64,000 nt of DNA from Thermodesulfobacteriota bacterium (GTDB lineage: Bacteria; Desulfobacterota; Binatia; Bin18): the NCBI GenBank assembly GCA_964291405.2, contig OZ219926.1, positions 2,176,001 to 2,240,000 of the forward strand. Reading direction: 5' to 3'. The notes under the pieces were generated by a model. That model saw nothing but the letters and a program-made list of their open reading frames with translations, was not told the DNA's origin and searched no databases. The number at the start of each line of letters is the position of its first letter. Within the stretch, counting starts at the first letter, position 1. Below are positions 14,012 to 62,159 of the stretch, in pieces. The position numbers and the translations under genes were made by a program.

Positions 14012-15385
14012 ATGGAACTGACCTCGTTTTCGGCTACAACGCTGGCTCGATTTATTCGGACAAATCTCGTCTCTTCGGTTGCCGTGGTGGATGCACATCT
14101 GGCCCGCCTCGAAGCAGCCAATCCAAAGCTCAACGCCGTGGTGCAGCTTCAGGCCGAAGCAGCGCGGCGACAGGCTCGTGCAGCCGACGAAGCCGTCTCG
14201 CGGGGAGAACGCTTCGGCCCACTGCACGGTGTCCCCATCACGCTCAAGGATTCGTTAGACACCGCCGGCATGGTCAGTACCTGGGGGACAACGGGCCGAG
14301 CCGCCTTTACCCCCGAGCACGATGCCACAGTGGTGGCGCGTTTGCGTACCGCGGGAGCTATCATCCTGGGAAAAACAAATACGCCGGAGTTCACCCTGGC
14401 GGGGATTACGGATAACGATGTCTATGGCCGGACAAACAATCCGTATGATGTGGAGCGGTCGCCCGCGGGCAGTAGTGGGGGGGCTGGGGCGATTCTTGCG
14501 GCGGGCGGCTCGGCGCTCGACCTGGGGAGCGATACGGGCGGCAGCATTCGTATGCCATCCCACTATTGCGGTATTGCCGGTATCAAACCCACCTCGGGCC
14601 GCGTGCCCCGCACCGGGCACGCCATTTCGTTTGATGTCGGCGCCCTGGATGCCTTCACCCAGATTGGCCCTATGGCGCGACATGTCGAAGACCTGAGCCT
14701 GACCTTATCCATTATTGCCGGTCCGGATGGGCACGACCCGGCGGTTGTGCCAGCCCCGTTGGGAGACCCCCAAGACGTGAGCGTGAAGGATCTACGGGTC
14801 GCCTTCTTCACGGACAACGGGATCAAATCCCCGAGCCCGGACACCGCCAGCACCGTCCGGGCTGCGGTCAATGTGCTCGCCGATCATGGCGTCTCGGTCA
14901 CAGAAAATCGGCCGCAGTGTGTGAGCGACGCAGAGCGACTGTGGTACAGTCTCTATCTTGCGGATGGAGGAGCCTGGATACGTCGGCTCATCCACGCAGC
15001 CGGGACTGAGCGCATGTCTTCCGCCTTGGATTGGATGCAAACGGCTCAGCCTGTATCACTCACGGAGTTCACCCAGGAAATGAGCAGGTGGAATGTCTAC
15101 CGGAGTGAAATGCTGGCGTTTATGGAGCCCTACGATGTGCTGCTGTGTCCTGTCAGCGCCACACCCGCCACGCGCCATGACGATCCCGACGGCCCGGATT
15201 TTACCTACACCTTCGCCCACAATCTGACCGGCTGGCCGGGCGCGGTCGTGCGCTGTGGAATGTCTGCCGAGGGGCTGCCGATTGGGGTCCAGATCGTCGC
15301 CCATCCCTGGCGTGAGGATGTCGCCCTGGCCGTCGCCCAGTATCTGGAGACGAATCTTGGCGGTTGGCAAAGCCCGTCCCTCTAG
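14012..15385 (+). CDS. Amidase (amidase-signature family)
   Basis: PLHGVPITLKD, GKTNTPEF, GSSGG and GSDTGGSIRMP motifs. Confidence 0.95.
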   Translation: MELTSFSATTLARFIRTNLVSSVAVVDAHLARLEAANPKLNAVVQLQAEAARRQARAADEAVSRGERFGPLHGVPITLKDSLDTAGMVSTWGTTGRAAFTPEHDATVVARLRTAGAIILGKTNTPEFTLAGITDNDVYGRTNNPYDVERSPAGSSGGAGAILAAGGSALDLGSDTGGSIRMPSHYCGIAGIKPTSGRVPRTGHAISFDVGALDAFTQIGPMARHVEDLSLTLSIIAGPDGHDPAVVPAPLGDPQDVSVKDLRVAFFTDNGIKSPSPDTASTVRAAVNVLADHGVSVTENRPQCVSDAERLWYSLYLADGGAWIRRLIHAAGTERMSSALDWMQTAQPVSLTEFTQEMSRWNVYRSEMLAFMEPYDVLLCPVSATPATRHDDPDGPDFTYTFAHNLTGWPGAVVRCGMSAEGLPIGVQIVAHPWREDVALAVAQYLETNLGGWQSPSL

Positions 15386-29700: not shown

Positions 29701-31165
29701 CCGCCTTTGGCACAGAGACGGCGACATGCCTTGGAGAACCCGTAGGCCACTTCCCATCACACAATCCGTTAGAGGCGCGTGCTGGCGTACCATAGCCCTC
29801 CACCACAATATGCGCGTTTGTACCGGACCAGCCGAAACCGCTTACGCCGGCCAACGGCGCTCGGTCGGATACGAGAGGCCACTCCGTTGCTGTCGAAGTA
29901 ACACGTAAAGGAAGCTGCCGCCAATCGACCGCTGGTGTCGGATTGTGAAAATTCAGGTGCTTCGGGATGATGCCCCGATTCATCGCCAGCAATACCTTCA
30001 TCACCCCGGCAACGCCCGCCGCAGATTCCAGATGTCCGAAGTTCGTCTTCACGGAACCTATGAGCAGCGGTCGCTCAGCCGGACGGCCTTTGCCGTATGC
30101 GGCCGCCACTGCCCGCAGCTCGATGGGGTCGCCCACCGGCGTTCCCGTGCCATGCGCTTCCACATAGTCCACCTGTGATGACAATACGCCTGCCCTGAGC
30201 AATGCCGCCTTGATGACCTGTTCCTGGGCCTCCCCATTCGGCACTGTCAGCCCCGTACTCGCACCGTCCTGGTTCAGTGCAGAGCCGCGAATGACGCCCC
30301 AGATTCGGTCGCCGTCCGCTTCCGCCTCGCTCAGCCGCTTGAGAACCAGGATCCCGCAGCCTTCGCCGCGCACATACCCATTGGCGGCAGCATCGAAAGT
30401 CTTACAGCGTCCGTCCGGCGCCAGCATTCCGGCATTCGCCCGCAGTTCCAGGAGCCGTCCCGACAGGATGGTGTGGACCCCGCCCGCCAGCGCAAGGTCG
30501 GCCTCGCCATACTGCAAGCCGGTCACCGCCTGATGGATTGCTACGAGCGATGAAGAGCAGGCCGTGTCCACGGCAATTGCCGGCCCCTGCAAGCCAAGCG
30601 CGAAGGAGACTCGTCCGATGGCCGTGTTGTAGGAAGTACCGCTGACCGTGTAGAGGCTGGAGGCCGGCTCGGCTGTGTCACTGGCTTCCAGTATGACTCC
30701 CCGGTATTCGTTATTGCTGATACCCGCATACACTCCGGTTCGGCTGCCCTTCAGTCCGTCAGGGTCTATTCCCGCGTCTTCGAGCGCCTGCCAGCTCGTT
30801 TCCAGCATCAGTCGCTGCTGCGGGTCAAGGTACTGCGCCTCAACCGGCGAAATACGGAAGAAGGAGGCGTCGAACTGGTCAACCCCATCAATGAAAGCAG
30901 CAAAGCGACAAGCCTCGCTCTGAACTGATGCATCCTGGAAAAGCTTGCCGGCACGTCCGACACCGGAACCCGGAACGCCCTCGCTGACCGCATTCTCGCC
31001 CGCTTCCAGCATACGCCAGAATGCCGAAATATCATTCGCGCCGGGGAATCGACATGCCATGCCTACGACTGCGATCGGCTCTCCGAATTGTGAACCCGAG
31101 CGATTCCGAACATCTGGCTCAGCTACCGTCGCGTGTGAAGAATCAGCAGACCGCCCTGTACTCAT
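20780..31165 (-). CDS. supA: Type I PKS/FAS, KS-AT-DH-cMT-ER-KR-ACP-KS-AT0 (SupA-like)
   Basis: KS DTACSSS/HGTGT, AT GHSLG/QAFH, DH HRVFGRVIMP, MT LEVGAGTG, ER LIHAGAGGVG, KR VTGGLGGIG, ACP LGMDSL, KS2 DMACASS and AT2 GSGTG. This matches the published sponge-symbiont sup architecture. Confidence 0.93.
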   Translation of the reverse strand: MSTGRSADSSHATVAEPDVRNRSGSQFGEPIAVVGMACRFPGANDISAFWRMLEAGENAVSEGVPGSGVGRAGKLFQDASVQSEACRFAAFIDGVDQFDASFFRISPVEAQYLDPQQRLMLETSWQALEDAGIDPDGLKGSRTGVYAGISNNEYRGVILEASDTAEPASSLYTVSGTSYNTAIGRVSFALGLQGPAIAVDTACSSSLVAIHQAVTGLQYGEADLALAGGVHTILSGRLLELRANAGMLAPDGRCKTFDAAANGYVRGEGCGILVLKRLSEAEADGDRIWGVIRGSALNQDGASTGLTVPNGEAQEQVIKAALLRAGVLSSQVDYVEAHGTGTPVGDPIELRAVAAAYGKGRPAERPLLIGSVKTNFGHLESAAGVAGVMKVLLAMNRGIIPKHLNFHNPTPAVDWRQLPLRVTSTATEWPLVSDRAPLAGVSGFGWSGTNAHIVVEGYGTPARASNGLCDGKWPTGSPRHVAVSVPKAASDSAAEAPAVRATRLLPLSGKTDNALRELAERYLAWLDERATDLEPTDLAASPFLSDLAWMAGVGRSQFAHRAGVAFRDAESLRAGLKAVADGDGGAEAAAATKVAFVYTGQGSQWMGMGKTLYECEPVVRAVLDRCEQVILEERGTSLLDVMFGSEGDLNDTAWAQPAVYALECALTALWRSIGVEPGVVIGHSLGEFAAAQAASVFELEEGLRFVAKRGVLLSSVPEFGTMAAVFASEDQVAAAVDEYNASSDGMDLSIAVDNGIHQVISGPSAAVQTVSERFEAEEITVRPLTRNQAFHSALVEPALDALEEAYQDVTVSPPSVALVSNVTGSVVAPDEILDGKYWRRHAREAVQFRKGVGTLAELGVDLVIEVGPHAVLGPLVSLVWSGVTDDAKDPTVLESMLRPSTDVLPSDHDDGFMDAVAGAYEAGLTLAFDGLFAGEERRRVELPGYPFQRARHWIDAPRRRRAAAGHPLLGIRHESPHGEVMFETEMFPSDPSWLNDHRVFGRVIMPGALYGVMAAAASLSEGAQSVDVEDLQLHSALVFAEEDGADDTEQAGRKIQAVLSTSENGNTRHIEIFSKGESEEGWSLHAEGKVSLGGRTRGTVNRIDVDGLKSGMEPQDVAAFYRARAESNIHLGPTFRTLQGLWAANGEAIGEVALPAAVDSSGLHLHPVLLDGCFQVLSAARHSARGEDEITYLPFGWEHLWLRQQLPERLICHARLRESARDTSEDDGRNETPEVLSGDLLFYTSDGVELGGLSGYIVKRATRAALLSAAEGLQDLLYEIVWRDRALADGMPSADFLTSPTSIAARSMPFTEYLADEGVEADERVDLLNDLERLSWFYALAALEQLGWARKVGEFVEPEAVQHGLNVLPEHQRVFRRMFELLVRARVMEEAGDGFVVKVGQDDPLPDDMPHNPDAFADEMNARYWHGATEVGLFRRCGAALADVLIGQADPLTLLFSSGEPTAGDLYLKSPVARAANRMLGNTIAALLDDLPEGRRLRVLEVGAGTGAATAAVLPELPVGRFDYTYTDISAGFFAEAEARFGGSDGSIEYRVLDIEKAPIEQGFDLHGYDLVIASNVLHATRYLNETLAHCRALLAPSGQLVALENLRGQGWQDLTFGQLDGWWRFADDYRPHHALASPAIWRQALGDAGFGEVEILGGGESDATSTPDRGVILAQGPAEVKEATGVWVLAGDQYGVADELAAELAAHNQTVVLVGDHAQSDGESSEKDRAVIKAAVEMQSRESWRSLLEGLPAEVPLSGVVHFAALDGHGEDATTEELGEDARQAGGSALALVQGVMDADATPAKGVWFITRGGQVLEREHLGQLIGAMLWGFGKVVAREAPHLQPRMIDLDPANAVPLSDLVNELMYPDSETHIAYRLGLRQAARLVRTGADTERLTLPEESRWFLEPDAGGTLEGLHVLDSPERSLEPREVRVAVGASGLNFWDVFRSLGLIDEGILGGEMCGHVLEVGSDVTSVSVGDRVVALAFGAFGSEAVMREEMVALAPPDVPTPQLATMPTVFVSAALSYDLAKLKAGERVLIHAGAGGVGLAAIQLAHAAGAEVFATASAPKQAYLHSLGVKHVFDSRQTKFGQEILEATGGEGVHVVLNSLTGEGFIEASLSCLAHGGRFIELARVNIYSEEEMTAARPDVDYHILELDTLKEHDPERPGAALKTVMKRVAAGELAPIIHTRWPMGEAGPAMKFMRAARHIGKIVLTNSALETGQLRGDRTYLVTGGLGGIGCALAGWLAERGAGAIVLNGRRDPDPEAVEAIGALRERGVTVQIEIADVTDTAAVDAMLERIDATLPPLAGIIHSVGVLSDAVLTNQSWDSFQQVLWPKMLGAWHLHRATTHRDLDMFVLFSSVAGVMGNAGQANHAAANAFLDQLAGHRRALGLPGQSVAWGAWSELGEAEEQRERIERQLEAAGTGWITPQQGLRALETLVRQDVPVGMVAAVDWPTFAENDDESSPFLEELLATSAGANDAAEDPSEDLLSQLRVSQRTDSEDILVSFLQKELQAVMRLPSTPLPSPSVGFFDLGMDSLMAVELRNRLNRAFAGEYVVSNTAIFDYPDITALARHLADELDQLGASGGATSAPEITVPEPRAPVATEDDDIAIVGMSCRFPQAKDLSEYWHLLESGTAAITNGRPDGGSWSSAAGDPDGEDAAHLHGAFVEGIEWFDSRFFRIAPIEARLMDPRQRMMLETSWQALEDAGIDPEGLRGSRTGVYAGVGGSEYRDLIEGSGKADSYLGTTASVTAGRVAFALGLEGPAMAIDMACASSLAAVHQAVAGLQRDEVDLALAGGVQAVLSPAVSRFMMEVGMLSPRGQCSPFDASADGYVRGEGCGIVVLKRLSEAEADGDRIWGIIKGSAVNQNGASAGLIIPNGPAKERVMEAALARTGFTGADVDYLEAHATGSQLGDAIEVYAVGSVYGRGREADRPLLMGTVKSHIGHLEAAAGVAGLIKTVLAMKQGVIPEHLHFENPNPQIEWDRLPVRVTSEKTDWPFYPDRPPRAAVSAFGISGTNAHIVMEGYRGAADDYGTSVGIQSFASVPRQVPASLPEPVAHLPMAMDGLTERAVRFLPLSGKTDGALRDLAKQYLSWLDERVAESSPEAPALADMAWTAGVGRSHFDHRAAVVFRDVQSLRKGLTKLTEADGAADKPEPRSATRVAFVYTDDGSQWVGMGEALYDREPVVRSVLDRCDAVVCAERGESLLDVMFGRTEATGDLHAAAWTQPALYALECALTALWASVGLRPDIALGSGTGEIAAARAAGVFTLEDGLRFTLTRGTLMAALPGVDPNQSLNGLEAAFTDVTLSPPSLTLVSGITGRVVDADSPLDGAYWRAQARETEAFSACVRTLAELGVDTVVEIGPNAVLGPRVSLEWPDSADGEEAARVPLVLTSLMQPSDADSEGGTGFVEAVAGAYEAGLTPAFDGMFAGESRRRISLPSYPFQRRRHWV

Positions 31166-31680: not shown

Positions 31681-31857
31681 AAGGATAAGGATCAGCCGGC
31701 AGGTACGGAACCTGGGGATGGCGAGGGGTGTCAGCCGCAAGGTCCAGCTTCTGTCGTTCCTGTGGAAGTCGCCCATCCTTGGCGTGAAGATGTCGCCCTG
31801 GCCGTCGCCCAGTATCTGGAGACAAATCTGAGCGGTTGGCAAAGCCCGTCTCTGTAG
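31681..31857. pseudogene. Chimeric scar: 86-bp fragment of a third exported-protein paralog fused to the last 90 bp of the amidase
   Basis: 31681-31766 matches 16552-16637 (PQERQKLDLAADTPRHPQVPYLPADPYP, minus strand); 31768-31857 matches 15296-15385 (VAHPWREDVALAVAQYLETNL.GWQSPSL*). Confidence 0.88.
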
Positions 31858-33252
31858 CAATGGGTTTGACTTTGAGGCCGACGGAGAGCCTCAACGCCCT
31901 TGCTCGCTCACCTCAAACACCAGTCGCCCGGCGGCCTCCTGTGCCTGGACACGAGCGAGAATCTCAGCAGGGAGTTGGAGCGAGCGCTCCTCGGGAAATT
32001 TCTCTTCCTCTAAGGCGGGCCGTAAGAAAAAGAGGTCGGGGGAGTGCACTTGGGCCTGGGTTTTGACAGAAGAATCAAGGGCCCACTGCCGGCGCATAAA
32101 ATCCGGGCTGAAGAACAGCGCGATCTCCTGAGGCTTCCAGGCGGTTACCCGGTGACTGTCGTTCACAAAATATGTCATCAGGTCATCGGCAATATCCCAG
32201 TACACGGTAAACAGTGATCCATATCCCTGTTCCCCCAAACCTGGATTAAAAACCTCGGCCAGCCTGACCTCGATGTGAATGAGCTTGCCGTCGGGACCGT
32301 ATTTCTCGATACGCAGGGGGAAAAAAGAATATTCCTCTAGCCAAAACAAGAGCCGCGGCACATAGTAATCGGGCAGCCATTCGGGGCGGGCTCGGGCCTC
32401 GACAACATAGCACCGTACCCCACCCTCGGCCGTATAGTGCCGATAGCTGTCTCCCATCAGCTTGAGCTCAGCCGTCTGCCGCTCTTGAAACTGACCGGTC
32501 TGCCCGTTCCGTAACATGATGGTGGGGCGCGTCTTGGGAAAGCGCACAGTTTGATACAGAGTATCCAGACCCAGTATCCGCCAGGAAAACTCCCAGGCGT
32601 CGCGGCCGTAATTGTCGTCGGGCGTGAGCGCCATATTGGGCACCTTCCCCTGCCGTCGGAGTGGCGCTTCGTGACGCACCCGGCGCTTGGTCGGTGAGTA
32701 TCGGAAGCGTTCTTCCTTTTTGATGAATGCCTTGCCCGTGCGATAGCGAACCGAGAGAAATTGCGATCCTTCTGCAGCCGGGGGAGTGGTGCGCTGACTG
32801 AGAGAGCGGTAGATTTCTTCGCCGGGCTTGAGGGCGAGTTCCGCCCCCGCACCGGCCGTGCCAGCGTTATAGGCCAGAAAATTGGTGGCACTGCCCGGAT
32901 TGAGGAGTATGCCCCGGGTGGAAATCGACGACCACGCCCTGGCAAACACGGCCGACCAACGCGGCCGTGCGGTGAACTCCATGAGCCGATAGCCCATCTC
33001 CTCAGCCGTATAGGGCGGTGTAAAAGGATAGGGCTCAGCCGGCAGATACGGAACCTGAGGATGGCGGGGAGTGTCAACCGCAAGGTCCAGCTTCCGTCGT
33101 TCCTGTGGAGAGAGGTCGGCGACCGTTTTCCAGGTACGGTTCCGGGAGTTGTTCGTCTCTTCAGCAGCAGGGAGACCAGCCCCAAGAGTCAGGATGAAGG
33201 CTGAAAGCAACCAGAAGAACAGGCACGAGACCATGAGGCGCAATTAAACATA
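31768..33252. repeat. ~1.5-kb direct repeat, copy B
   Basis: Diverged, colinear duplicate of 15296-16780. Confidence 0.92.
31891..33243 (-). CDS. Exported protein, DUF1329-like (paralog B)
   Basis: 450 aa, same length as and highly similar to 15419-16771. Confidence 0.7.
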   Translation of the reverse strand: MRLMVSCLFFWLLSAFILTLGAGLPAAEETNNSRNRTWKTVADLSPQERRKLDLAVDTPRHPQVPYLPAEPYPFTPPYTAEEMGYRLMEFTARPRWSAVFARAWSSISTRGILLNPGSATNFLAYNAGTAGAGAELALKPGEEIYRSLSQRTTPPAAEGSQFLSVRYRTGKAFIKKEERFRYSPTKRRVRHEAPLRRQGKVPNMALTPDDNYGRDAWEFSWRILGLDTLYQTVRFPKTRPTIMLRNGQTGQFQERQTAELKLMGDSYRHYTAEGGVRCYVVEARARPEWLPDYYVPRLLFWLEEYSFFPLRIEKYGPDGKLIHIEVRLAEVFNPGLGEQGYGSLFTVYWDIADDLMTYFVNDSHRVTAWKPQEIALFFSPDFMRRQWALDSSVKTQAQVHSPDLFFLRPALEEEKFPEERSLQLPAEILARVQAQEAAGRLVFEVSEQGR

Positions 33253-38485: not shown

Positions 38486-38539
38486 AAAGAGGAAACGTGT
38501 CCAGCATCGCATATCTATTGGAAGACACGTTTCCTCTTC
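38486..38539 (-). repeat. 54-bp palindromic element, copy 2
   Basis: AAAGAGGAAACGTGTCC-agcatcgcatatctattgga-AGACACGTTTCCTCTTC, between divergent genes. Confidence 0.9.
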
Positions 38540-45293: not shown

Positions 45294-45347
45294 AAAGAGT
45301 AAACGTGCCCTCCACTCAGGTATAATTGCTGGGCACGTTTACTCTTT
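45294..45347 (+). repeat. 54-bp palindromic element, copy 3
   Basis: AAAGAGTAAACGTGCCC-tccactcaggtataattgct-GGGCACGTTTACTCTTT; perfect 17-bp inverted repeat. Confidence 0.92.
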
Positions 45348-45365: not shown

Positions 45366-46196
45366 ATGACGTATCAGAACCTGATATTCGAGAAGAAGGA
45401 TGCTATCGGCTATCTGACCCTCAACCGGCCACAGAAGCTCAATTCATTCAGCAAGGAACTGATGGCCGAACTGGGCGAGGCGCTTGATGCGATCGAAGCC
45501 GATGACGACATCCGGGTCGTGATTCTGACCGGAGCCGGGCGGGCGTTTTCCGCGGGGTTCAATATCGCGCCGCCGGAGGGCGAGCCCGAACTCTACGACC
45601 GCTCCGCGGATAGCTGGCGGACTGATTTGAAGTACAACATCGAGATTTTTCTCAAGATCTGGCATTCCAGCAAGCCGTATATTGCGGCGATTAACGGCTA
45701 TGCCCTGGCTGGCGCGTGCGAACTCGCCCAGTTATGCGATATTAAAATTGCCTCCGAGCAGGCGGTGCTCGGTGAGCCGGAAATCCGGTTTGGGACCGGC
45801 CCCCCGGTCCTGGTCACGCCGTTCAGCGTCGGGTTTGCCAAGGCAAAGGAACTGCTCCTGACCGGGGAAATGATCTCCGCCCACGAGGCTGAGCGCCTGG
45901 GCATGATCAATCGTGTCGTACCGCACGACCAGCTCATGCGTGAATGCGAGAAGACGGCCCGCAAGCTGGTAAAGATCGCTCAGGTTGGGGTGAAGTTTAA
46001 CAAGGCCGCCATTAACCGGGCGTATGAGAACATGGGCTTTCTGAACAGTATCTACCAGAATCTCGATCTGGTTGTCATGTTTGACACCACCCGGACGCAA
46101 GAGCAGGAAACGTTCAACCAGATCCGGAAGGAAAAAGGCCTGCGCGCCGCGCTCGACTGGCGCGATGCGCTGTTCAAGGAAGACGACAAAGAGTAA
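45366..46196 (+). CDS. Enoyl-CoA hydratase/isomerase
   Basis: LNRPQKLNS, AFSAGFNI, AINGYALAGACE and PEIRFG; GAGGAGG RBS. Confidence 0.94.
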   Translation: MTYQNLIFEKKDAIGYLTLNRPQKLNSFSKELMAELGEALDAIEADDDIRVVILTGAGRAFSAGFNIAPPEGEPELYDRSADSWRTDLKYNIEIFLKIWHSSKPYIAAINGYALAGACELAQLCDIKIASEQAVLGEPEIRFGTGPPVLVTPFSVGFAKAKELLLTGEMISAHEAERLGMINRVVPHDQLMRECEKTARKLVKIAQVGVKFNKAAINRAYENMGFLNSIYQNLDLVVMFDTTRTQEQETFNQIRKEKGLRAALDWRDALFKEDDKE

Positions 46197-46241
46197 ACGT
46201 GTCCAGCATCTCGTGTTTATTGGAAGACACGTTTACTCTTT
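46188..46241 (-). repeat. 54-bp palindromic element, copy 4 (contains the ECH stop codon)
   Basis: AAAGAGTAAACGTGTCC-agcatctcgtgtttattgga-AGACACGTTTACTCTTT. Confidence 0.92.
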
Positions 46242-51456: not shown

Positions 51457-53376
51457 TTAGCGTGAAGCGGGGTGTGCCCGTAAGTGCTGGTGTATTTTTT
51501 CCGCCAGGATCGGGGTAATCCCCGCGACCTGGCCCAACGCTTCGGGTGCGGCGGCGCGCACGCGCTTAAGACTGCCAAAATGCCGTAAGAGCGCTTTGCG
51601 TTTGGCCGGGCCAACGCCGCTAATCGCCTCAAGCGGCGAACTGAGACGCTCTTTGGCACGTAGGTTCCGGTGGTAGGTAATGGCAAAGCGGTGGGCCTCA
51701 TCCCTGATACGTTGCAGAAGGAAGAGCGCCGTAGCGTTGGGCTTGAGAATGACCGGATTCTTGCGACCGGGCAGAAAGACGCGCTCGGAGGAATGAGCGA
51801 CTTCTTCGGCAAACGGGTCCCGCTCGGTCCGCATCTTGGCCAGACCAATGACATCCACCTCAGTAATTCCCAACTCTCGCAGCACAGTGACTGCGACGCC
51901 GAGTTGGCCTTTGCCGCCATCCACCATGAGAAGGTCCGGCAGGTCATGTTCCGCCAAGGCGCGCTGATAGCGGCGGGTGAGGACTTCATACATCATGCCG
52001 AAATCATCCGCTCCCTCGACGGTTTTGATGCGAAACCGGCGGTAGCGGTTCCTATCCGGCTCGCACTCGTCAAAGACAACCATGGAACCAACGGAGAGAT
52101 TGCCCTGGGTATTCGAGATATCGAAACACTCAATCCGTTTTGGCGCGTTTTGCAGATGCAGCGCACGGCGGAGGTTCCCCAGGGTTTTCTCCTTATGTTC
52201 TTCTCCCCGCCGCTTTTCGACAAAGCTGTGACGCGCGTTTTCCTGAGCCATTTCCACCAGTCGCAGTTTGGCTCCGCGCTGCGGACAGAGCAGGCTGATC
52301 TTTTTCCCTTTCCGTTCCGAGAGGAGTTCCGCCCGGATGTCGGCATCGTCAAGTGCAACGGGGACAAGAATCTCGTCGGGGATAAATCGGCCGCTCTGGT
52401 AGAATTGGCTCAGGAATTCAGCCACGACCTCCACGTCGGGAAACTCATTATCGGTAAAGCTATAGGCCAGATTGCCAACCAGTTTCCCGCCGCGTACAAA
52501 CAGGACCTGTCCTTCGATCAGCCCGCCTTCGCGGTACAGGCCGAACACGTCCTGGTCGTTCCCCAGGGGGGTGGCGACCTGCTGCTTTTCCGCGGTTTTT
52601 GTCATGGCCTGGATTTGATCCCGTAGCCGGGCGGCTTCTTCAAAACGCAACGCGTCGGCGGCCTGGTTCATCTGCCGGGTGAGGCGATCTATCAGTTGGG
52701 TGCTTTTGCCTTCGAGCAGCAGCAGGGCATTTTTCAGTTGGTGCTGATAGTCTTCGGGATCAACCGGCAGGGTACAAGGACCGAGGCAGCGCTTGATCTG
52801 GTATTCCAGACACGGCCTGGTGCGGTTGCGAAAGACAGTGTCGGTACAGGTTCGCAGGGGAAAGACTCTGCGAATGATTTCCAAGGTCTCCTGGACTGCC
52901 GTGCTGGAGTGAAACGGTCCCAGATATTTACTGCCGTCCTTCGCAATCTGGCGGGTCAGGAGGAGACGGGGCCACTGGTCGTGCTGGGTGACCTTCACGT
53001 GCCAATAGGAGGTATTGTCCTTGAGCCGGATATTATACCGAGGCCGGAATTGCTTGATCAGGGTGTCTTCGAGCAGCAGGGCTTCTTTTTCGGTTTGGGT
53101 AACAATAACCTCAACATCGGTCAGTTGGGCGAGGAGAAAACGGATTTGTGCACGACCGTCCCCGCCACGGGCGTATTGTCTGACCCTGGCGCGCAGATTG
53201 TTCGCTTTCCCGACGTAGATGACGGTGCCGGTGTGATCCGTGAACTTATAGACGCCGGGACTGGTTGGCAGGGTTGTCAGCTTGGCTTCGAGTTCGGCGT
53301 TACGGGAGAAAGAGGAAACGTGTCCGGCTTTTTTGTCTGGTTGGAGGACAGGTTTCCTCTTTACGGCACTCGCCAC
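51457..53376 (-). CDS. uvrC: Excinuclease ABC subunit C
   Basis: PGVY...IYVGKA (GIY-YIG), RIECFDIS, VDGGKGQ, RDEAHRFA and HhH tail. Probable start is GTG 53376 after GAGGA. Confidence 0.96.
   Translation of the reverse strand: MASAVKRKPVLQPDKKAGHVSSFSRNAELEAKLTTLPTSPGVYKFTDHTGTVIYVGKANNLRARVRQYARGGDGRAQIRFLLAQLTDVEVIVTQTEKEALLLEDTLIKQFRPRYNIRLKDNTSYWHVKVTQHDQWPRLLLTRQIAKDGSKYLGPFHSSTAVQETLEIIRRVFPLRTCTDTVFRNRTRPCLEYQIKRCLGPCTLPVDPEDYQHQLKNALLLLEGKSTQLIDRLTRQMNQAADALRFEEAARLRDQIQAMTKTAEKQQVATPLGNDQDVFGLYREGGLIEGQVLFVRGGKLVGNLAYSFTDNEFPDVEVVAEFLSQFYQSGRFIPDEILVPVALDDADIRAELLSERKGKKISLLCPQRGAKLRLVEMAQENARHSFVEKRRGEEHKEKTLGNLRRALHLQNAPKRIECFDISNTQGNLSVGSMVVFDECEPDRNRYRRFRIKTVEGADDFGMMYEVLTRRYQRALAEHDLPDLLMVDGGKGQLGVAVTVLRELGITEVDVIGLAKMRTERDPFAEEVAHSSERVFLPGRKNPVILKPNATALFLLQRIRDEAHRFAITYHRNLRAKERLSSPLEAISGVGPAKRKALLRHFGSLKRVRAAAPEALGQVAGITPILAEKIHQHLRAHPASR
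53309..53362 (-). repeat. 54-bp palindromic element, copy 5 (in frame at the uvrC N-terminus)
   Basis: AAAGAGGAAACGTGTCC-ggcttttttgtctggttgga-GGACAGGTTTCCTCTTT. Confidence 0.9.
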
Positions 53377-53978: not shown

Positions 53979-55349
53979 ATGGCGACGATGATCACCGATG
54001 ACTGTATCAACTGCGGAGCGTGTGAGCCCGAATGTCCCAATACCGCCATCTATCAGGGAGGCGTGGAGTGGGACTTTAACGGCGCCACGAATCCGGCTAT
54101 CGATGACGACATCTTCTATATCGTGCCGGATAAATGTACGGAGTGTGTGGGCTTTTTCGATGAGGAAGCGTGTGCGGCCGTGTGTCCGGTCGACTGCTGC
54201 CTGCCCAACCCGGACATTGTCGAGACCGAAGAGGTGTTACTGGCGCGGGCCAAGGAGTTACATCCCGAGCAGACGTTTGGGGAGGACTTCCCCTCTCGCT
54301 TCAAAGGGGAAGGAGGAGAATCCACTCCGGCTGAAGCCGAGGCCCCGGCGGCGAATGGCGCAGCGGCACCAGCGGCCGCAGCGGCACCAGCCGCAGCTCC
54401 TGCCGCGGTGGCACCCGTCGCCGTAGCGCCAGCAGTGACGGCACCGACACCCAAGCCGGTTGCGCCCAAAAAGGTTGTCGAGGAAAAGGTCTTTGAAGGT
54501 GAACTGGCCGGTACGTACGCCCAGGCCCTGGCCCGCGTCCAGCAGGCGCAAAACCATTCAATTCTGGGGACGCTCCTTGCCTCGGCTCAGCCCATCCTTG
54601 GCGCGCTGCCGCTCTCAACTAAGCGCGCCCTGGAGCAAGCTATTGGGGATACGCGCTATTTTCATGTCGGGACGGCAACCAGCCTGAATATCCTTTTCAA
54701 TATGGTCCTGTATCCGATTATTCTCCTGGCCGTTTATAGCGCTGTTTTAGGAGGAGAACTCTTCAGTCAGGCGGCGAATAAATTTATCTTTCTGGGCGTA
54801 CTCATTGCCTCGGTCGAAACCTTAATCCGCCTGCGCGAGTCTTTCTTTCAGGGCGTTCCAACCGAAGAAACTCCGCTGCGTGGGACCTTCTATGGCCTCC
54901 CCCTTGCTCCGGCGATGGCCCCTTTTCTCGGTATCTCCGGCGGACGGACGCCTGATAAGGGCGACCAGCCGATTGAGGGCTATTATACACCGGAATTTGA
55001 TGAAAAGACCGAACGTTCGCGCCGTTACGGCGAACGATACACGGTCGAAGAACAGGGCAATGCCTATATCCTGCGCATGGAATTCCCGCGTCGGGTCCCG
55101 GTTTCCGCTGCTAAGCGGGAAATGGGGATTGGCGATGAAATGCCTGACTACGAGTATACGCTCTCTCTGAAGGACGGCAATTTTCTTGTCCGCGGCAGTG
55201 TCGATGACCCTGATATCCGTAAACTTGCCGCGGTATCGTCCGCGTTTCCCCCTGACTTTAATAAACGCATTGATGTGAGGGGAACCATATCGAGTTTCAA
55301 GCATCGCTATAGCGATAAGACGCTCGAAGTTGTGCTGTTCAAGCGCTAG
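53979..55349 (+). CDS. YfhL-like 2x[4Fe-4S] ferredoxin fused to a TM region and a C-terminal beta-rich domain
   Basis: CINCGACEPECP and CTECVG...CAAVCP; Ala/Pro linker; two hydrophobic helices; AAGGAG RBS. Confidence 0.85.
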   Translation: MATMITDDCINCGACEPECPNTAIYQGGVEWDFNGATNPAIDDDIFYIVPDKCTECVGFFDEEACAAVCPVDCCLPNPDIVETEEVLLARAKELHPEQTFGEDFPSRFKGEGGESTPAEAEAPAANGAAAPAAAAAPAAAPAAVAPVAVAPAVTAPTPKPVAPKKVVEEKVFEGELAGTYAQALARVQQAQNHSILGTLLASAQPILGALPLSTKRALEQAIGDTRYFHVGTATSLNILFNMVLYPIILLAVYSAVLGGELFSQAANKFIFLGVLIASVETLIRLRESFFQGVPTEETPLRGTFYGLPLAPAMAPFLGISGGRTPDKGDQPIEGYYTPEFDEKTERSRRYGERYTVEEQGNAYILRMEFPRRVPVSAAKREMGIGDEMPDYEYTLSLKDGNFLVRGSVDDPDIRKLAAVSSAFPPDFNKRIDVRGTISSFKHRYSDKTLEVVLFKR

Positions 55350-55533: not shown

Positions 55534-58500
55534 ATGTCTCAAAAGCGAGTATTTCTCTCCGACTCGCTTGCCGTCCTGCAAGAGGCGCTCATTGCCGCTG
55601 TCCATACGCTGAAGGCGGCCGATCCACTGACCTCACTCACGATTATTGTTCCCAGTGATATCATCGGATCACAGCTCAGCACCGCAATTGCCAGGGCGGG
55701 TGACGGGCATATCGGCCTGCGGTTTACGACACTGATCGACTATGCTGCACGCCTGACCGAAGCGCGACTGAGACGGGAGGAGAAACATCGCGTCTCAGCC
55801 GCGCTGGTTCCGCTTCTCGTAAAACATCTCTTGCTGGAACAAGCCCAGACCGGAAAGAGTAAACGTGTCCTCCAACAACATGTAGATGCTGGACATGTTT
55901 ACTCTTTATTTCGGGAACTCGCCCGGCAGCCGCGGTTTCCCCAGTTCTTGAGCGAGACGCTGTCAGACCTCAAGCAGGCGGGGGTCCAGCCCCACCATCT
56001 GCACGTATTGTATACCCGGATTCCTTCGCGGGACGTATTATATCGAGAGAAAATACGTCATTTGCTGGACCTCTACACGCGATATGAAGCATGTTTGGAC
56101 GAACAGCGGCTCGTTGATGACGCCAGTTTGTTCACCATCCAGGCCCCAACGGCAATGAGTAACGGGCCGCTGCTTGTGTACAGCGGCCTTGAGTATACCG
56201 CCCAACAGCAGCATTTTTTGGAAACGCTTTTCGCGCAGAGGGATACTCTGGTCTTTCTTCCCTGGCGGCCCGGTTCAGCCTACGAAGCCGTGACCCCCAC
56301 ATTGAGCTGGCTCAGCGGGCTCGGCTTTCAGTCATCTTCGTTAGCCCGTCCACAGGTCTCATCCTGTTCACTCTCTCAGGTCCAGACTCGGCTTTTTGAA
56401 CGCACCGGGGAGCCGCCCCAGCGGCCGGTCTCAACACTCCCGGATACCTCTCTTCACATCATTTCCGCCCCAGATCAAACCCAGGAGGCGCGTGAAATTG
56501 CGCGCACGATCTTTTCACTGGTTCGGGAGCAGGACTATATCTTTGACGAGATTGGCGTGCTCCTTGTCGAGCCAAAAACATATGGTCCGCTGCTGCTTGA
56601 GACGCTCTCCCGCCTCGGGATTCCGTGTACCTTTGTTGGGGAGCAGCCCTTGCTGACCACGCGACGGGGAAAAGCCGTGCAGGCGCTATGCCACCTCTTG
56701 TTAGAAGACTGCTCACGGCAGCGTCTGTTCGCCTTTCTCAGGCTGGCTCGCCCCCCGTTTCAAGACCTGATCGGGGAAACTGTTTCAGAGGCGCATATCG
56801 CCCAGTGGGAAGCCCTGTGTCTGGAGGCCGGGATAGGACGCGGAGGCCAGGAGTGGCGCGTTCGACTCGCCGCCCTGGAAGCTCGCTACCAAAACGTACC
56901 AGAGGGACGCACCGAACAGCTCGCGCCCGCCCTCCGTTTGCTTGTCAGGTTTATGACCCGTTTTCTGGCGGATGTGAAAACGGGTCAGGACCAACAGACC
57001 TGGGAAGGCTGGCTGGCCCACTTCCTGCGTATGTATAAAAAGTATGGAGAATATGGAGATTATGTGTCCGGCGGAGTCCCGTGGAGTGACGAGGAACCGG
57101 ATCAAGAAGGTGCAGGTGAGCAGGATCTGAATATTACGGAGACTCTCCGGAGTCTCTCTCCATTCTTGGCTGAAACAACTCGCCCTGAGGAATGGGTTGA
57201 GACTGTTCTGACCTGTCTTTCCTGGGGAAAGGTTCGACCCCGAAAAACGCACACGACCGGCGTCTTTCTTGGCGATATGACCCAGGTGGCCGGTCTCCGC
57301 TTTCGGGCGGTCATCATGCCGGGCCTTGCACAGGAATCCGGGGTTCGCCTCCCCTCTCAGGACCCTATTTTGTCCGATGCCGAGCGCCAGCATCTTGCCG
57401 AAGTGCTGACCATGGACGTGCCTGTCCGCCGCCAGGCGGTTGAACGCCAACAGTTCCTTTTCCTGCTGGCGACCCAGAGTGCGCAGGAGGTGTTATGTCT
57501 GAGCTATCCACGCACTGTCCAGGGAGTAGCCCGCCCTCCTGCTACGCTCCTCTTACAGACGGTCAGTGTGCTGTGTGGCCGTCAGGCCACGCTGGCAGAC
57601 CTGCAACACCGGAGCCGGTGGGTCTCGGCGGCTGAAGGATATGCGCAGAGCACCCGGCATGCGGTGGACGCGTTGGAGTTCCACCTGGCCTATGCGTTTA
57701 CCCATGCGCATCACGTTAAACACAATGCCCCGGCGCATGCGGTCCGGCCTGGTCTACAGACGATGCCGTTCTTTGCTCCTGCCGCGCGGGCGATGGTAGA
57801 CCGTTGGGAGCATCCACACCTCACGGCCTTTGACGGCTGCATGCAAGCGGAGAGCGTCAAGAACACGCTACGTCAGTACCTCTTCCCGCAGGGCTTGTGT
57901 TTGTCCGCGAGTAGCCTGGAAACCTATGCACGCTGTCCGTTTCGGTATTTTCTGGAGACCGTGCTCGCGCTCAAGCCGTGGGAAGAGCCGGAACAGATTC
58001 TTACCCTCCTGCCGCGCGACCGTGGAGTGTTGGTACATGCCATCCTGTACGAATTTTTCTCTCGTCTCCAACAGACGGACCAATTGCCCCTGTCCGCGCA
58101 ACGGAGAGATGAAGAGCAGCAACTGCTCACCCGGATAGCAGAGGAGCATTTTGCGCTATTTGCGCAGACGCGGCCGGTCGGACTGCCCCTGCTCTGGGAG
58201 CTTGAGCGTGAACGCCTGCTGCGGCGTTTGCACACCTTTCTCCAGCGCGAGCGCCGGGCAACGCACGGTTTTTGTCCAGCGGCATTTGAGGTATTTTTTG
58301 GCATCGGGATAAAGAGCTCAGAGTCGGAGGATAGGGAATCGGAGCGAACCCCTATCCCCCAATTCCTCACCCCCAATATTCCCGTTCCCTTTCGCCTTGA
58401 TACGGGGGAAGAGGTCCAGCTTCGAGGCCGGATTGACCGGATTGATGTTTCGACGGAACACATTGACCTTGTACAACCCAGGCAGGCACGCATTCTTGAC

Positions 58501-58878
58501 TATAAGACGGGCCGGACACCAGCCCAGGGTTTTGCGGGTGGAACCACGCTCCAACTGGTCCTCTATCTCTATGCCGCCCAGCATCTCCGCCCGGACCTGG
58601 ACTGGGTCGGGGCGGAGTACACGAGCGTGGACGGAACTGCTCAGCCCGACAAAAAGTCCCTGACGACGGAGACCCAAGCGGCGACGCTCGGAACCTTACG
58701 GACTATCGTCACCCGCCTGGCCGAGGGCATCACTGCTGGACTGTTCTTTCCTGCTCCGGATGCCTGCCAATCCTGTGCGTTTCCTGAAATCTGCTCTATG
58801 CACGGCGCTGAGTGGGCGACACAGAAACTCCAGGATCCCCACACAACGGCATGGCGCTGGGTACGGTCACAGGCATGA
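55534..58878 (+). CDS. addB: AddB/RexB-like protein with C-terminal PD-(D/E)XK nuclease and Fe-S ligands
   Basis: LSASSLETYARCPFRYF, RGRIDRID, LDYKTG, QLVLY and CQSCAFPEIC; degenerate helicase N-half. Confidence 0.85.
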   Translation: MSQKRVFLSDSLAVLQEALIAAVHTLKAADPLTSLTIIVPSDIIGSQLSTAIARAGDGHIGLRFTTLIDYAARLTEARLRREEKHRVSAALVPLLVKHLLLEQAQTGKSKRVLQQHVDAGHVYSLFRELARQPRFPQFLSETLSDLKQAGVQPHHLHVLYTRIPSRDVLYREKIRHLLDLYTRYEACLDEQRLVDDASLFTIQAPTAMSNGPLLVYSGLEYTAQQQHFLETLFAQRDTLVFLPWRPGSAYEAVTPTLSWLSGLGFQSSSLARPQVSSCSLSQVQTRLFERTGEPPQRPVSTLPDTSLHIISAPDQTQEAREIARTIFSLVREQDYIFDEIGVLLVEPKTYGPLLLETLSRLGIPCTFVGEQPLLTTRRGKAVQALCHLLLEDCSRQRLFAFLRLARPPFQDLIGETVSEAHIAQWEALCLEAGIGRGGQEWRVRLAALEARYQNVPEGRTEQLAPALRLLVRFMTRFLADVKTGQDQQTWEGWLAHFLRMYKKYGEYGDYVSGGVPWSDEEPDQEGAGEQDLNITETLRSLSPFLAETTRPEEWVETVLTCLSWGKVRPRKTHTTGVFLGDMTQVAGLRFRAVIMPGLAQESGVRLPSQDPILSDAERQHLAEVLTMDVPVRRQAVERQQFLFLLATQSAQEVLCLSYPRTVQGVARPPATLLLQTVSVLCGRQATLADLQHRSRWVSAAEGYAQSTRHAVDALEFHLAYAFTHAHHVKHNAPAHAVRPGLQTMPFFAPAARAMVDRWEHPHLTAFDGCMQAESVKNTLRQYLFPQGLCLSASSLETYARCPFRYFLETVLALKPWEEPEQILTLLPRDRGVLVHAILYEFFSRLQQTDQLPLSAQRRDEEQQLLTRIAEEHFALFAQTRPVGLPLLWELERERLLRRLHTFLQRERRATHGFCPAAFEVFFGIGIKSSESEDRESERTPIPQFLTPNIPVPFRLDTGEEVQLRGRIDRIDVSTEHIDLVQPRQARILDYKTGRTPAQGFAGGTTLQLVLYLYAAQHLRPDLDWVGAEYTSVDGTAQPDKKSLTTETQAATLGTLRTIVTRLAEGITAGLFFPAPDACQSCAFPEICSMHGAEWATQKLQDPHTTAWRWVRSQA
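55854..55907 (+). repeat. 54-bp palindromic element, copy 6 (in frame within addB)
   Basis: AAAGAGTAAACGTGTCC-tccaacaacatgtagatgct-GGACATGTTTACTCTTT. Confidence 0.92.
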
Positions 58879-61800
58879 CCCAAGCTCCCCTTTCGGACGA
58901 CGGCGCTCAGCAACGTATCGTCTCGGATTTTCAGACCACGTTTTTACTGGAAGCCGGAGCGGGAACGGGCAAGACGCAACTCTTACTGAATCGTTTGCTG
59001 GCCCTGCTGCGAACCGGCCGGAGTCCGCTGAGCCGGGTCGCGGTTATCACCTTTACGGATAAAGCCGCGGCTGAGCTTCGGACGCGGCTCCGCGCAGCGG
59101 TTGAGTCCGCACTCCAAACGGCCCTGCCTGAGGCAGAGCGCGCGGCCTTACAGGCGGTGCTGTCTGAGCTTGACCGGGCGATGGTGATGACCATCCACGC
59201 GTTCTGCGCGACCTTGTTGCGCGAACGAGCGCTGGAGGTCGGGCTGGACCCGGCTTTTACGGTCTTAAATCAGGCCGAGGCGGGCCTGCTGCACGACCAG
59301 GTCTGGCAGACCTGGCTCGCCCAAGAGCTGCAATCTGGGACTGACAGCGCGACCCTGATACGCCAGGCGTTTCGCGCCGGTCTCTCAGTGACCCATCTCA
59401 AGGCCCTGTGCGATTTTTTGGTCGAACAGCGCGACTGCCTGGACTGGCTACCCGCAGCAGTCGATAGCGATGTCCCGGCATACTGTACCGAGAGCCATCA
59501 GGCCGTCGCCCGGCTGACGGCGCTACAGGACTGTTGTCACGACACCACAGACTCGGCGTTCGAGCAGATCACGACTCTGACCGACAGCGTCCCAACAGCC
59601 TTCTATCAGGACAATGCGGAGGCCTGGGAGCACTTTCTGTTACACCGCCTGACAGTACAGCCTCGAAAGGGGAGACGGACGAACTGGCAACCGACCGCGG
59701 CGCTCAACGAAGTACGGACGCTGCTCGCGCAGCTCAAGGCCCTTCATCTCAAGACCCGAGCCGCCTGGCTGCATAATCTGACGGTGGGCCTGGCCGGTTG
59801 GCTGGGCGGCTATCTGCGCGCCTATCAGGCCAAGAAACAACACCAGGGCAGCCTCGATTTTCTGGACCTGCTGGTGCTGATGCGCGACGGACTCAGGCAT
59901 AACCACGAACTGCGGCGCTATTTTCAACGCAAATTCGACTTCCTGCTGGTTGATGAAGTCCAGGACACCGATCCCTTACAAGCCGAAATTCTGTTCTTCC
60001 TGGCCGAGGATCAACCGCGGGCGGAGCGCTGGACACAGGTTGCCCTCCGCGCCGGGAAACTGTTTCTGGTCGGCGATCCCCAACAATCCATTTATCGCTT
60101 TCGGCGGGCTGACCTTGAAGTCTATCACCTGCTTCGCTCGGCGGTTGAACGCCAGGGGAGCGTTCTCAACCTCTCGACAAATTTCCGGATGCGAGCTGCC
60201 CTGGTGACACAGATGAATACCCTCTTTTCACGGGTGCTGGACAATGAGGACGACCCGGACCAACCTCGGTATCTGCCCTTGCGCGCGGTGAGCAGTGATG
60301 GGGACGAAGACGGGCTGACGTTTTTGCTCTTGGATCTGCCTCACGCAGCGCCACACGAACAGGGTGCGCTCGAAGCGCGCTGCACAGCACAGTTTATTCG
60401 TCACAGCGTTGAGCAGCAGACGCTGGCAACACAAGCAGATCGGCCTCTGAGGTATGGCGATATCGCTATCCTGTGCCGAACGAATCGAGGCGTAGAGCTG
60501 TATGAACGAGCCCTACGGGATGCCGGCGTCCCGTACCGAAGCACGGGCGGGCGGCGGGTTGCGGCAAGTCAGGAACGGACCGATATACAGGCGTGTGTGC
60601 GGACGTTGCTTCATCCCGCGGACGCTACGGCCCTGGTGGCGACCTTGCGCTCGTCACTCTTTGGCTTTTCAGACGAAGAGCTGGCGCAATTTCGCTGTGC
60701 CGGCGGGACATTCGACTATCTCGGTGGCAGGATCCCAGGACAGCTTCCCTGTGCCGACCGGCTGCATGCCGCTTTTGCGGTGCTGCGTACCCTACACCAG
60801 AGTCTGTCCCGTACTGTGCAGAGTGCTCAGAGTGTCGGGGCCGGGCTCTCTATTCTACTCACCGAGATATATAGCCACACCCCCTTACTCCCGCTGTTTG
60901 CCTGCCGCCCCCACGGACAGCAGCGGCTCCACAAGATGCTTCAACGTGTTGAGGCGCTACGCGATATGTCCGGCCAATACGGAGCTGCGCAGGATTTCTC
61001 CCCGGACTTTTTCGACCGTCTGCTCGCCTCTGCGCTAGATGAATACGAGGAAGGGCAGACCGAGCAAGCGAGCGCTCTTGATGAGCCGCAAGACGCGCTC
61101 CACGTCCTGACAATTCACAAAGCCAAAGGACTGGAATTCCCACTTGTCGTGGTGGCGGAGTCCGGAGCGCCGTCCAACCGGTTGACCCGTCCCGGCCTAG
61201 TGAGACGCAAAGATAATCGTCTTGAACTCCACCTTGGTCCGCGCTCCCTCCAGTGTTGCACACTCGGCTGGCAGGAGGCTGAGGCCCGAGAACGCCAGCA
61301 GGAAGCTGCCGAGGAGAGACGGCTCTGGTATGTGGCAGCTACGCGCGCCCGGGAATACGTCGTGTTTCCCGTACCCCCACCGTCAGAGACGAAAAAAAAG
61401 GACACCGTGCTGCATACGGTCCTGCGCGACCTCTCAGGCACAGAGCGGCAGGCTGTCCCTCAGAGCGATGCCAACCAAACGGACCAGTCTCAGGTTTCGT
61501 CCGGGCCTGACCCGACTGACTCCCAGGAAAAGTCAGCCGCTGCTGATGCTCAGCCTTCCGATATCGACTGGGTAACGGACAGACGGCGACTCATTGCCAA
61601 AGGGCGGCAAAAGCGACAAACCCGGAATATACTTCAGCGGGGAAATGCATCGCAGCAACAGGTTCAGTTGGATCGTCTTATTACGCAGACGGCCGTACAC
61701 CTGAGGCAAGACCAATCAGTGGAAGCGTCTCTCCAGGCGGCATCAGCCGCGCAGGACAACAGCGGCTATGCCTCGGACGCCCCTTTCCCCGACGACGTGC

Positions 61801-62159
61801 AGCAGTATATTGCCAGGGCCGCACTCTGGCCACGTATTCACACTGCTCCCCAATGCATTGTGGACGAGGAATTCACGCTGCATGTCGGCAAGACGCTCCT
61901 CACTGGGCGTATTCCACTGGCGTTTCTCGAAGGCGGCAAATGGGTTATTGCTGACTTTTCCCTGGGAGGGGTAGATCTCTCAGGAAAAGAGCACAGCGTT
62001 GTGTATACACGCCTTGGGCCCAGCGCTCTGGCCCTTGAGCAATTGACCCCGTTTCCGGTACAGGACCTACTCCTCTTTCTGGTCGATCGACAGCAGGAAA
62101 TCTGCGTTGCATGGGAGAGTCCGGGGAAGGACGCTCTCCAAAAACAATTGTTGGGCTGA
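58875..62159 (+). CDS. addA: AddA/UvrD-family ATP-dependent helicase
   Basis: AGAGTGKT, ITFTDKAA, VDEVQDT, VGDPQQSIYRFR, TIHKAKGLEF and YVAATRA. ATGA coupling to the addB stop fixes the start at 58875. Confidence 0.9.
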   Translation: MTQAPLSDDGAQQRIVSDFQTTFLLEAGAGTGKTQLLLNRLLALLRTGRSPLSRVAVITFTDKAAAELRTRLRAAVESALQTALPEAERAALQAVLSELDRAMVMTIHAFCATLLRERALEVGLDPAFTVLNQAEAGLLHDQVWQTWLAQELQSGTDSATLIRQAFRAGLSVTHLKALCDFLVEQRDCLDWLPAAVDSDVPAYCTESHQAVARLTALQDCCHDTTDSAFEQITTLTDSVPTAFYQDNAEAWEHFLLHRLTVQPRKGRRTNWQPTAALNEVRTLLAQLKALHLKTRAAWLHNLTVGLAGWLGGYLRAYQAKKQHQGSLDFLDLLVLMRDGLRHNHELRRYFQRKFDFLLVDEVQDTDPLQAEILFFLAEDQPRAERWTQVALRAGKLFLVGDPQQSIYRFRRADLEVYHLLRSAVERQGSVLNLSTNFRMRAALVTQMNTLFSRVLDNEDDPDQPRYLPLRAVSSDGDEDGLTFLLLDLPHAAPHEQGALEARCTAQFIRHSVEQQTLATQADRPLRYGDIAILCRTNRGVELYERALRDAGVPYRSTGGRRVAASQERTDIQACVRTLLHPADATALVATLRSSLFGFSDEELAQFRCAGGTFDYLGGRIPGQLPCADRLHAAFAVLRTLHQSLSRTVQSAQSVGAGLSILLTEIYSHTPLLPLFACRPHGQQRLHKMLQRVEALRDMSGQYGAAQDFSPDFFDRLLASALDEYEEGQTEQASALDEPQDALHVLTIHKAKGLEFPLVVVAESGAPSNRLTRPGLVRRKDNRLELHLGPRSLQCCTLGWQEAEARERQQEAAEERRLWYVAATRAREYVVFPVPPPSETKKKDTVLHTVLRDLSGTERQAVPQSDANQTDQSQVSSGPDPTDSQEKSAAADAQPSDIDWVTDRRRLIAKGRQKRQTRNILQRGNASQQQVQLDRLITQTAVHLRQDQSVEASLQAASAAQDNSGYASDAPFPDDVQQYIARAALWPRIHTAPQCIVDEEFTLHVGKTLLTGRIPLAFLEGGKWVIADFSLGGVDLSGKEHSVVYTRLGPSALALEQLTPFPVQDLLLFLVDRQQEICVAWESPGKDALQKQLLG

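Follow-up and report, generated by a model that had tools for sequence, protein, structure and literature searches.

We found that a 54-bp palindrome at positions 55854–55907 of the window, i.e. the whole 64,000-nucleotide stretch of DNA that was analysed, lies in frame within an addB-like gene, where it adds 18 residues that many homologs lack exactly. The palindrome looks like a member of a non-autonomous mobile element family of Ca. Binatia that is apparently undescribed. On balance of the evidence presented below, we consider it likely that these elements are moved in trans and that the copies found within coding sequences are neutral survivors of such insertions.

An in-frame palindromic insertion in an addB-like gene

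The organization of the insertion site and of its host gene is as follows:

55854–55907 (+): putative mobile palindrome, copy 6, 54 bp, in frame in addB; 18-residue gap in orthologs
55854–55870 (+): left inverted arm, 17 bp; ends sharply conserved over 195 copies
55871–55890 (+): asymmetric spacer, 20 bp; flipped in homolog P0051, of another subtype in L004/P0015
55891–55907 (+): right inverted arm, 17 bp, one mismatch relative to the left arm
55534–58878 (+): AddB-like gene, 1114 aa, with a PD-(D/E)XK nuclease domain; among solved structures, best matched by B. subtilis AddB
58812–62159 (+): AddA/RecB-like UvrD helicase, partner gene
55855–55908 (+): inserted peptide, residues 108–125, KSKRVLQQHVDAGHVYSL; low-confidence coil in the predicted structure
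55843–55848 and 55921–55926 (+): GCCC(A/G)G microhomologies, 78 bp apart, around the element

Within the ORF, the element runs from the third base of codon 107 (Gly) to the second base of codon 125, an example of the predicted junction peptide being VLQQHVDAGHVYSLFR. This location bears out the original prediction, which had placed copy 6 in frame about 107 codons into an addB-like ORF.

The assignment of the host gene relies on several concordant observations. A profile of 49 relatives retrieved B. subtilis AddB as top match (E 4.5e-86), as did Foldseek with the predicted fold (E 1e-34); the PD-(D/E)XK domain is found at the C-terminal end and a gene for a UvrD-type helicase follows downstream. 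Because the score remains under the curated AddB cut-offs (103.7 bits against 903.7 for the equivalog model TIGR02773), we refer to the gene product as AddB-like.

To place the insert among its relatives, the 58 closest of 67 returned homologs were aligned, 57 of which span the insertion site; the nine distant homologs P0059–67 were excluded from the indel count and from the tree, and P0050 does not contain the region. The latter protein starts just past the insertion site and is possibly derived from a broken allele or a fragment. As anticipated by the original prediction, which expected a gap of about 18 residues, exactly 18 residues are missing in 26 of the 57 homologs, including all 15 that lie outside a 42-member ingroup, so that the competing view of an ordinary, alignable segment in orthologs fails. 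The insert is present in 16 of the 57 (18 residues in 14 cases, 17 and 16 residues in one case each), one of these inserts being flipped and one carrying another spacer type. The 15 remaining homologs are 23–26 residues shorter than the filled form and represent larger in-frame deletions. Insert carriers are 78–89% identical to the query. As protein searches return intact reading frames alone, open inserts are over-sampled in these counts.

A start codon downstream of the element, which would have left the palindrome untranslated, is not consistent with the sequence upstream. Codons 1–106 show pN/pS values of 0.27–0.30 in all three DNA comparisons, and the N-terminal region aligns to B. subtilis AddB from residue 16 on; the addB start therefore lies upstream of the element. 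Both flanks (codons 1–106 and 126–400) are under purifying selection (pN/pS 0.2–0.3 against three orthologous loci), and the gene is therefore alive on both sides of the insert. Within the insert itself, pN/pS amounts to 1.45 (18 codons) and 0.79 (16 codons) and shows no sign of protein-level constraint. From this pattern, we infer that the insert peptide is produced in the cell.

In the predicted structure (mean pLDDT 77), residues 104–123 have values below 50 and would form a coil between the helices 89–106 and 125–129, in agreement with the loop position that had been proposed; the low pLDDT may in part reflect thin alignment coverage of the insert. The mycobacterial AdnAB chain 7SJR_A has extra residues at the same turn.

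A family of palindromes in Ca. Binatia

Folding of copy 6 yields a hairpin of −14.6 kcal/mol (z −6.1), a stability reached by 0 of 200 shuffled sequences. All six full copies in the window, starting at 2524, 38486, 45294, 46188, 53309 and 55854, fold as a single long stem between the arms, and the arms are devoid of an internal hairpin upon inspection. No lone arms were detected in the window at up to 3 mismatches. Inverted repeats of 15 bp separated by 18–25 nt begin at 16 positions of the window, versus 0 in each of three shuffles, and Rfam returned no match in the window at gathering thresholds.

A scan of GTDB genomes with the left-arm pattern identified at least 127 stretches representing at least 126 loci. 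All 126 loci among the matches listed are titled Ca. Binatia or Binatota, corresponding to about 22 assemblies as counted from the titles. Together, the window and the scanned loci contain at least 196 distinct full copies at at least 148 sites. Their length is narrowly distributed (54 bp in 117 of the 196, 55 bp in 42, 53 bp in 18 and other values in 19, with a range of 43–59 bp), and away from the anchor matches the scanned loci contain approximately one copy per 17 kb.

The remaining copies of the window, and the gene that probably carries copy 5, are located as follows:

2524–2577 (unstranded): copy 1, immediately followed by the ATG of formate--tetrahydrofolate ligase
38486–38539 (unstranded): copy 2, intergenic
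45294–45347 (unstranded): copy 3, intergenic; the same site in L073:5121 holds the opposite orientation
46188–46241 (unstranded): copy 4, enoyl-CoA hydratase gene, just before the ancestral stop; clean empty site at L073:9160
53309–53362 (−): copy 5, probably uvrC codons 6–23, KRKPVLQPDKKAGHVSSF
51457–53376 (−): uvrC, begins upstream of copy 5 with a GTG preceded by GAGGA

Copy 4 provides the C-terminal end K-E-stop, and the ancestral TGA is found immediately beyond the element. In many of the scanned loci, copies are likewise located at gene ends and provide a K-E-stop. Copy 5 begins five codons past the GAGGA..GTG start of uvrC; the insert is present in all 10 UvrC homologs returned, 6 of which were aligned and start at the same GTG. 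UvrC of the window is thus probably another in-frame carrier in which residues 6–23 are translated from the element. At the uvrC site of locus L004, an in-frame remnant of the copy is all that is present.

Copies in other proteins

Sufficient flanking sequence for a coding test was available for 188 copies from the scanned loci and the window. Forty of these lie between coding-like stretches; 21 are inserted in frame with no stop codon and represent 17 sites, and 19 are out of frame or contain stops, and are located mostly at gene ends as judged by eye rather than one by one. Of 400 random positions, 206 satisfied this coding filter, compared with the 21 of 188 copies. Genes are thus depleted of copies, and the coding copies therefore look like tolerated survivors and not like donated functions.

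The in-frame hosts include GyrB, MnmG (two sites), RimO, MrpA, MltA, RavA-like and ViaA-like proteins, CoA-transferases, a molybdopterin oxidoreductase, and PhoR-like, BamD-like and HEAT proteins, and for 11 of the 17 sites an ortholog without the 18 residues exists. The 55-bp copies in GyrB (L049) and in L104/L122 are accompanied by the loss of one junction base, resulting in a net gain of 54. In spite of its insert, the GyrB protein of L049 (7854–10337; 55-bp copy, net 54) exceeds the curated cut-off for GyrB. Coding copies occur in all three frames and in either orientation, the RGNVSS..DTFPL frame being the commonest in the coding sample. The single peptide motif K[SR]K[RP]VLQ, by which the original prediction had proposed to search the proteome, would consequently miss most cases. 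Its broader suggestion, that the element donates loops to housekeeping proteins, holds as far as the 17 in-frame sites are concerned (e.g. GyrB, MnmG, RimO and MrpA); it should not be taken to mean a functional donation, in view of the depletion in genes, the absence of any sign of protein-level constraint on the insert and the frequent loss.

Two profile searches seeded with known sites, and therefore biased to the seeded genes, added 126 new proteins in 16 groups, two of which may be spurious ORFs. An element-like peptide was present in 124 of the 126, and 27 contain two such peptides. For MnmG site 1, the insert is found in 22 of 22 returned proteins, a proportion biased by the use of the insert itself as search seed. 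Finally, a 55-bp copy breaks a coding-like frame at L064:10000, and the RimO record P0086 is frameshifted at the insert; both are possible gene-breaking insertions, or sequence errors.

Insertion is blunt and its target preference is weak

Comparison of filled and empty alleles gave a zero offset in 31 of 82 empty-type pairings and a non-zero offset in 51, and 16 sites passed a strict clean-empty ortholog filter. Over 147 sites, flanking direct repeats are as frequent as in shuffled sequences for lengths of 2 nt (11 vs 9.7), 3 nt (2 vs 2.5) and 4 nt (0 vs 0.6), and direct repeats of 1 nt are slightly in excess (50 vs 36, p 0.007). Insertion is blunt, and target bases are neither duplicated nor deleted.

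The target preference is weak and two-sided: on either side, A is avoided at flank position 6 (6 of 294) and G is favoured at flank position 5 (156 of 294). The gain from an asymmetric target model was weak, at 42 log units compared with 18–34 in 20 shuffles. Neither of two candidate targeting determinants was retained. The spacer does not guide the element to its target, the mean longest common word being 3.95 in both real and shuffled comparisons (160 of 300 shuffles as high), and the target is not a pre-existing hairpin, since over positions 1–6 at 147 sites the left and right flanks are less complementary to each other than shuffled pairs are. The flanks behave as if extensions of the hairpin were avoided or lost.

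In five loci (L031, L075, L098, L101 and L118), the element has inserted into a second type of repeated palindrome (CCCCTCC..GGAGGGG), and in several copies the base is identical. Moreover, the site of element copy L030:9970 is occupied at L015:9411–9465 by another palindrome, A-rich and about 55 bp long, an observation that hints at sister families with common targets.

Flips, concerted arm changes, and repeated gain and loss

Both orientations were encountered at 9 of 35 sites represented in more than one genome, and in these cases it is the spacer of the site itself that is reversed. Flips also affect coding sites, as observed for P0051 (AddB) and for P0140 and P0142 (MnmG). The arms change in concert: a T/G variant is common to both arms in 58 copies where 21.5 are expected, and both arms have changed at this position in 8 ortholog pairs. 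According to the accessible part of PMC8604942, template switching yields both arm homogenisation and spacer inversion.

At the addB site, additional types of alleles are observed. The deletion allele of locus L061 (78 bp) joins the two GCCC(A/G)G words that surround the element, and L004 holds a different spacer subtype at the identical base. In a single-gene protein tree built without the insert region, exact-empty alleles are nested among insert carriers in four places; parsimony requires 5 changes at the site, and the carriers do not form one clade (a single carrier clade is rejected with p-AU 2.2e-5 for a 17-row subset picked after seeing the tree). Given that flanking direct repeats are absent, slippage should not restore the site exactly, so that exact restoration calls for enzyme-driven excision, reinsertion at a favoured site, or allele exchange.

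Comparison with known palindromic repeats

Statements on published systems in this section refer to the accessible parts of the papers cited. Rickettsia palindromic elements (RPEs) are in-frame palindromic repeats in unrelated protein genes, have a size of about 150 bp and are found in ORFs in nearly half of the cases (PMC10969869). The Binatia element likewise resides in frame in unrelated protein genes, at its 17 sites, but differs by its unit of 54 bp, its coding proportion of about 11%, the use of three frames and its occurrence in another phylum, as judged from the published description of RPEs. The Rickettsia parallel drawn by the original prediction is hence a functional one and extends no further.

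Intragenic GTAG/CGTC REPs have been described in Opitutus terrae, in Xanthomonas recB and elsewhere, where dimers add 20–30 residues; they are listed in uvrA, uvrC, recB and recD of several species and provide stop codons (PMC3733652). The Binatia element resembles them as a short palindrome inside ORFs that supplies stops. In contrast to REPs, however, it has GTAG and CGTC tags near its ends in just 3 and 3 of 196 copies, and unlike REP dimers it forms one long stem of fixed length in place of two small hairpins. The TIRs of TIRtrons (TIRYT, HUH Y1 subclass 2.1) are long inverted repeats, many of them dimers (PMC3733652, PMC6006769), with GGGGWSAS as the TIRYT motif (PMC3733652). The inner end of the left arm of the Binatia element, itself built of long inverted repeats, is close to this motif; yet the exact motif occurs in 1 of 196 copies, and no TIRYT gene was found in the scanned loci. 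A closer relative of the Binatia element could be present among the TIR sequences in Figure 9 or the supplement of PMC3733652.

REPINs of Pseudomonas are non-autonomous, consist of two inverted repeats around a spacer, and have been reported to excise (PMC3337134). The general architecture is shared by the Binatia element; REPIN arms are, however, REPs with palindromic cores and mainly extragenic, and no RAYT was seen in the Binatia loci scanned. Bacterial MITEs (Correia, RUP, ERIC, Chunjie) combine TIRs with a transposase-free core and a stem-loop, and some generate in-frame ORF fusions (PMC3184786). Terminal inverted repeats, a transposase-free core and dispersed polymorphic copies are also features of the Binatia element, but it creates no target duplication and is far shorter than the tabulated MITEs (about 100 bp or more, BOX units excepted; PMC3184786).

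No description of the family, including three 14-nt arm words, was retrieved from the literature searched, a search in which most subscription papers fell outside the scope. Translated palindromes are already documented, even in recB and uvr genes, and the central observation is therefore not new in kind. What appear to be new are the family and the way in which it unites blunt insertion with flips inside proteins and with repeated exact gain or loss; the phenomenon itself is known.

The family offers a clean natural experiment, in which one 18-residue cassette is found in many proteins of about 22 assemblies, the alleles at a given codon being empty, filled, flipped, swapped or over-deleted. 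Loops of AddB, GyrB, MnmG and RimO that tolerate an insertion are mapped in this way, and the neutrality of such repeats becomes testable. The family also suggests that it is mobilised by an enzyme that does not duplicate the target. The spread of REP-like and RPE-like repeats is still poorly shown, and a scarless inserter of this kind would be useful as a tool.

A model for spread and persistence, and its alternatives

Taken together, these results suggest a model in which an enzyme encoded elsewhere would copy the palindrome around Ca. Binatia genomes, inserting it bluntly and hitting genes in any frame and orientation. Most coding insertions would be purged, and those kept would lengthen the gene by a multiple of three bases, preserve an open frame and lie in a tolerant loop; such copies would be common because the usual length is 54 bp. 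The host protein would then bear an 18-residue loop that is neutral and probably disordered, located after Gly107 in the case of addB. Spacer flips and concerted arm changes could arise by template switching during replication, and microhomology would remove the hairpin together with adjacent codons, as shown for L061. Either enzyme-driven excision and reinsertion or allele exchange would repeatedly restore or refill the site.

As to the mobilising enzyme, our best guess for this step alone, which we put forward at somewhat under even chances, is an HUH Y1 transposase of TIRYT/RAYT type. It is prompted by the absence of target duplication, the exact loss and the near match to the TIRYT motif: at the inner end of the left arm, GGGGWSAS is matched with one mismatch in 127 of 196 copies and exactly in 1, and right arms match with two mismatches in 125. 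No transposase candidate was found in the 1.58 Mb of loci. An HUH pattern matched 2 ORFs there, neither of them a transposase, and E. coli RayT produced chance matches only against 13,860 six-frame segments, a sample covering a small part of each genome; the best of these matches lies in an ORF that presumably resembles a type I restriction subunit. No lone arms facing a transposase-like ORF were found in the loci, the lone arms there being decayed or partly deleted copies, and plasmids and phages yielded one partial, chance-level match each (E about 4). Moreover, targeting by IS200/IS605 elements is one-sided, and a two-sided preference is not expected from it.

The two-sided flank preference would fit with a dimeric enzyme acting on double-stranded DNA, and the element may then be a MITE served by a blunt-cutting DDE transposase or a site-specific recombinase, with the same consequences for the proteins. 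We regard this as a tenable, albeit less probable reading: the ends are sharply defined, the arms long and perfect, and the different 55-bp palindrome at a shared site (L015:9411 vs L030:9970) suggests related elements sharing targets, but target duplication, a signature listed for MITEs in the accessible part of PMC3184786, is absent, and no IS with these ends was found, either in the 1.58 Mb of loci or in plasmids and phages. A more far-reaching proposal, which we consider doubtful, is that a so far undescribed transposase or recombinase moves the unit scarlessly in and out of the same base and flips it, the essential proteins AddB, GyrB and MnmG toggling between empty, forward and reverse 18-residue forms in living populations; its two-sided target rule would be unlike that of characterised HUH or DDE enzymes.

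The scatter of presence and absence in addB could also be explained if lineages had exchanged short addB segments by homologous recombination, which we judge rather unlikely. The lineages are close (78–89% amino-acid identity), a copied-in empty allele would restore the site exactly with no need for a special enzyme, and the scatter of carriers rests on a single-gene protein tree. The neighbouring residues of empty alleles nevertheless appear lineage-like, for instance QSQTG|F in the P0010 group, whose insert-bearing sisters have QDLVG or QDRTG, and the L004 spacer subtype at the same base requires either a second insertion event or conversion by another copy.

Co-option, in which the peptide or an mRNA hairpin tunes AddB (or UvrC, GyrB, MnmG) and repair genes are favoured targets, is improbable in our estimation. 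The insert is old enough for its carriers to be only 78–89% identical to the query, some sites such as MnmG site 1 look widespread, two adjacent repair genes in the window hold copies, and many intragenic REPs are reported from repair genes in the part of PMC3733652 available. Against this stand the 41 of 57 AddB homologs without the insert, a pN/pS of the insert near or above 1 (on few codons), the tolerance of flipped and swapped versions, the mixed functions of host genes, and the seeded search behind the MnmG count. That flips and inserts are assembly errors at hairpins, or that addB is a pseudogene, is largely refuted and has hardly any probability left. Hairpins can mislead assemblers, and one RimO record (P0086) is frameshifted at the insert; however, the insert occurs in 16 separate protein clusters of graded divergence, flipped pairs have fixed differences and come from different assemblies, and addB shows pN/pS values of 0.2–0.3 on both sides. 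Insertion in trans followed by neutral survival of tolerated copies is the reading that we favour.

Additional features of the window

Several features of the window were noted in passing. In the C-terminal part of the AddA-like protein (58812–62159; also in L061), where Pfam finds no nuclease domain, the sequence reads GRIPL..IADFS at the place where we take the RecB-type nuclease motif to have its catalytic D and K, and the nuclease site may be inactive as judged from these residues. A stand-alone tyrosine recombinase (Phage_integrase) is encoded at 12156–12914, with no element copy nearby. Upstream of addB, the ORF at 53979–55349 combines a 4Fe-4S ferredoxin domain and an Ala/Pro-rich linker with a region that contains hydrophobic stretches and has no Pfam match. 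The ORF at 20780–31165 (−), of 3461 residues, resembles a modular polyketide synthase and contains internal repeats spaced by about 7.7 kb, and the region is bracketed by a duplicated 450-residue gene plus flanks (15296–16771 and 31681–33243), the two copies being 16,472 bp apart and 87–91% identical.
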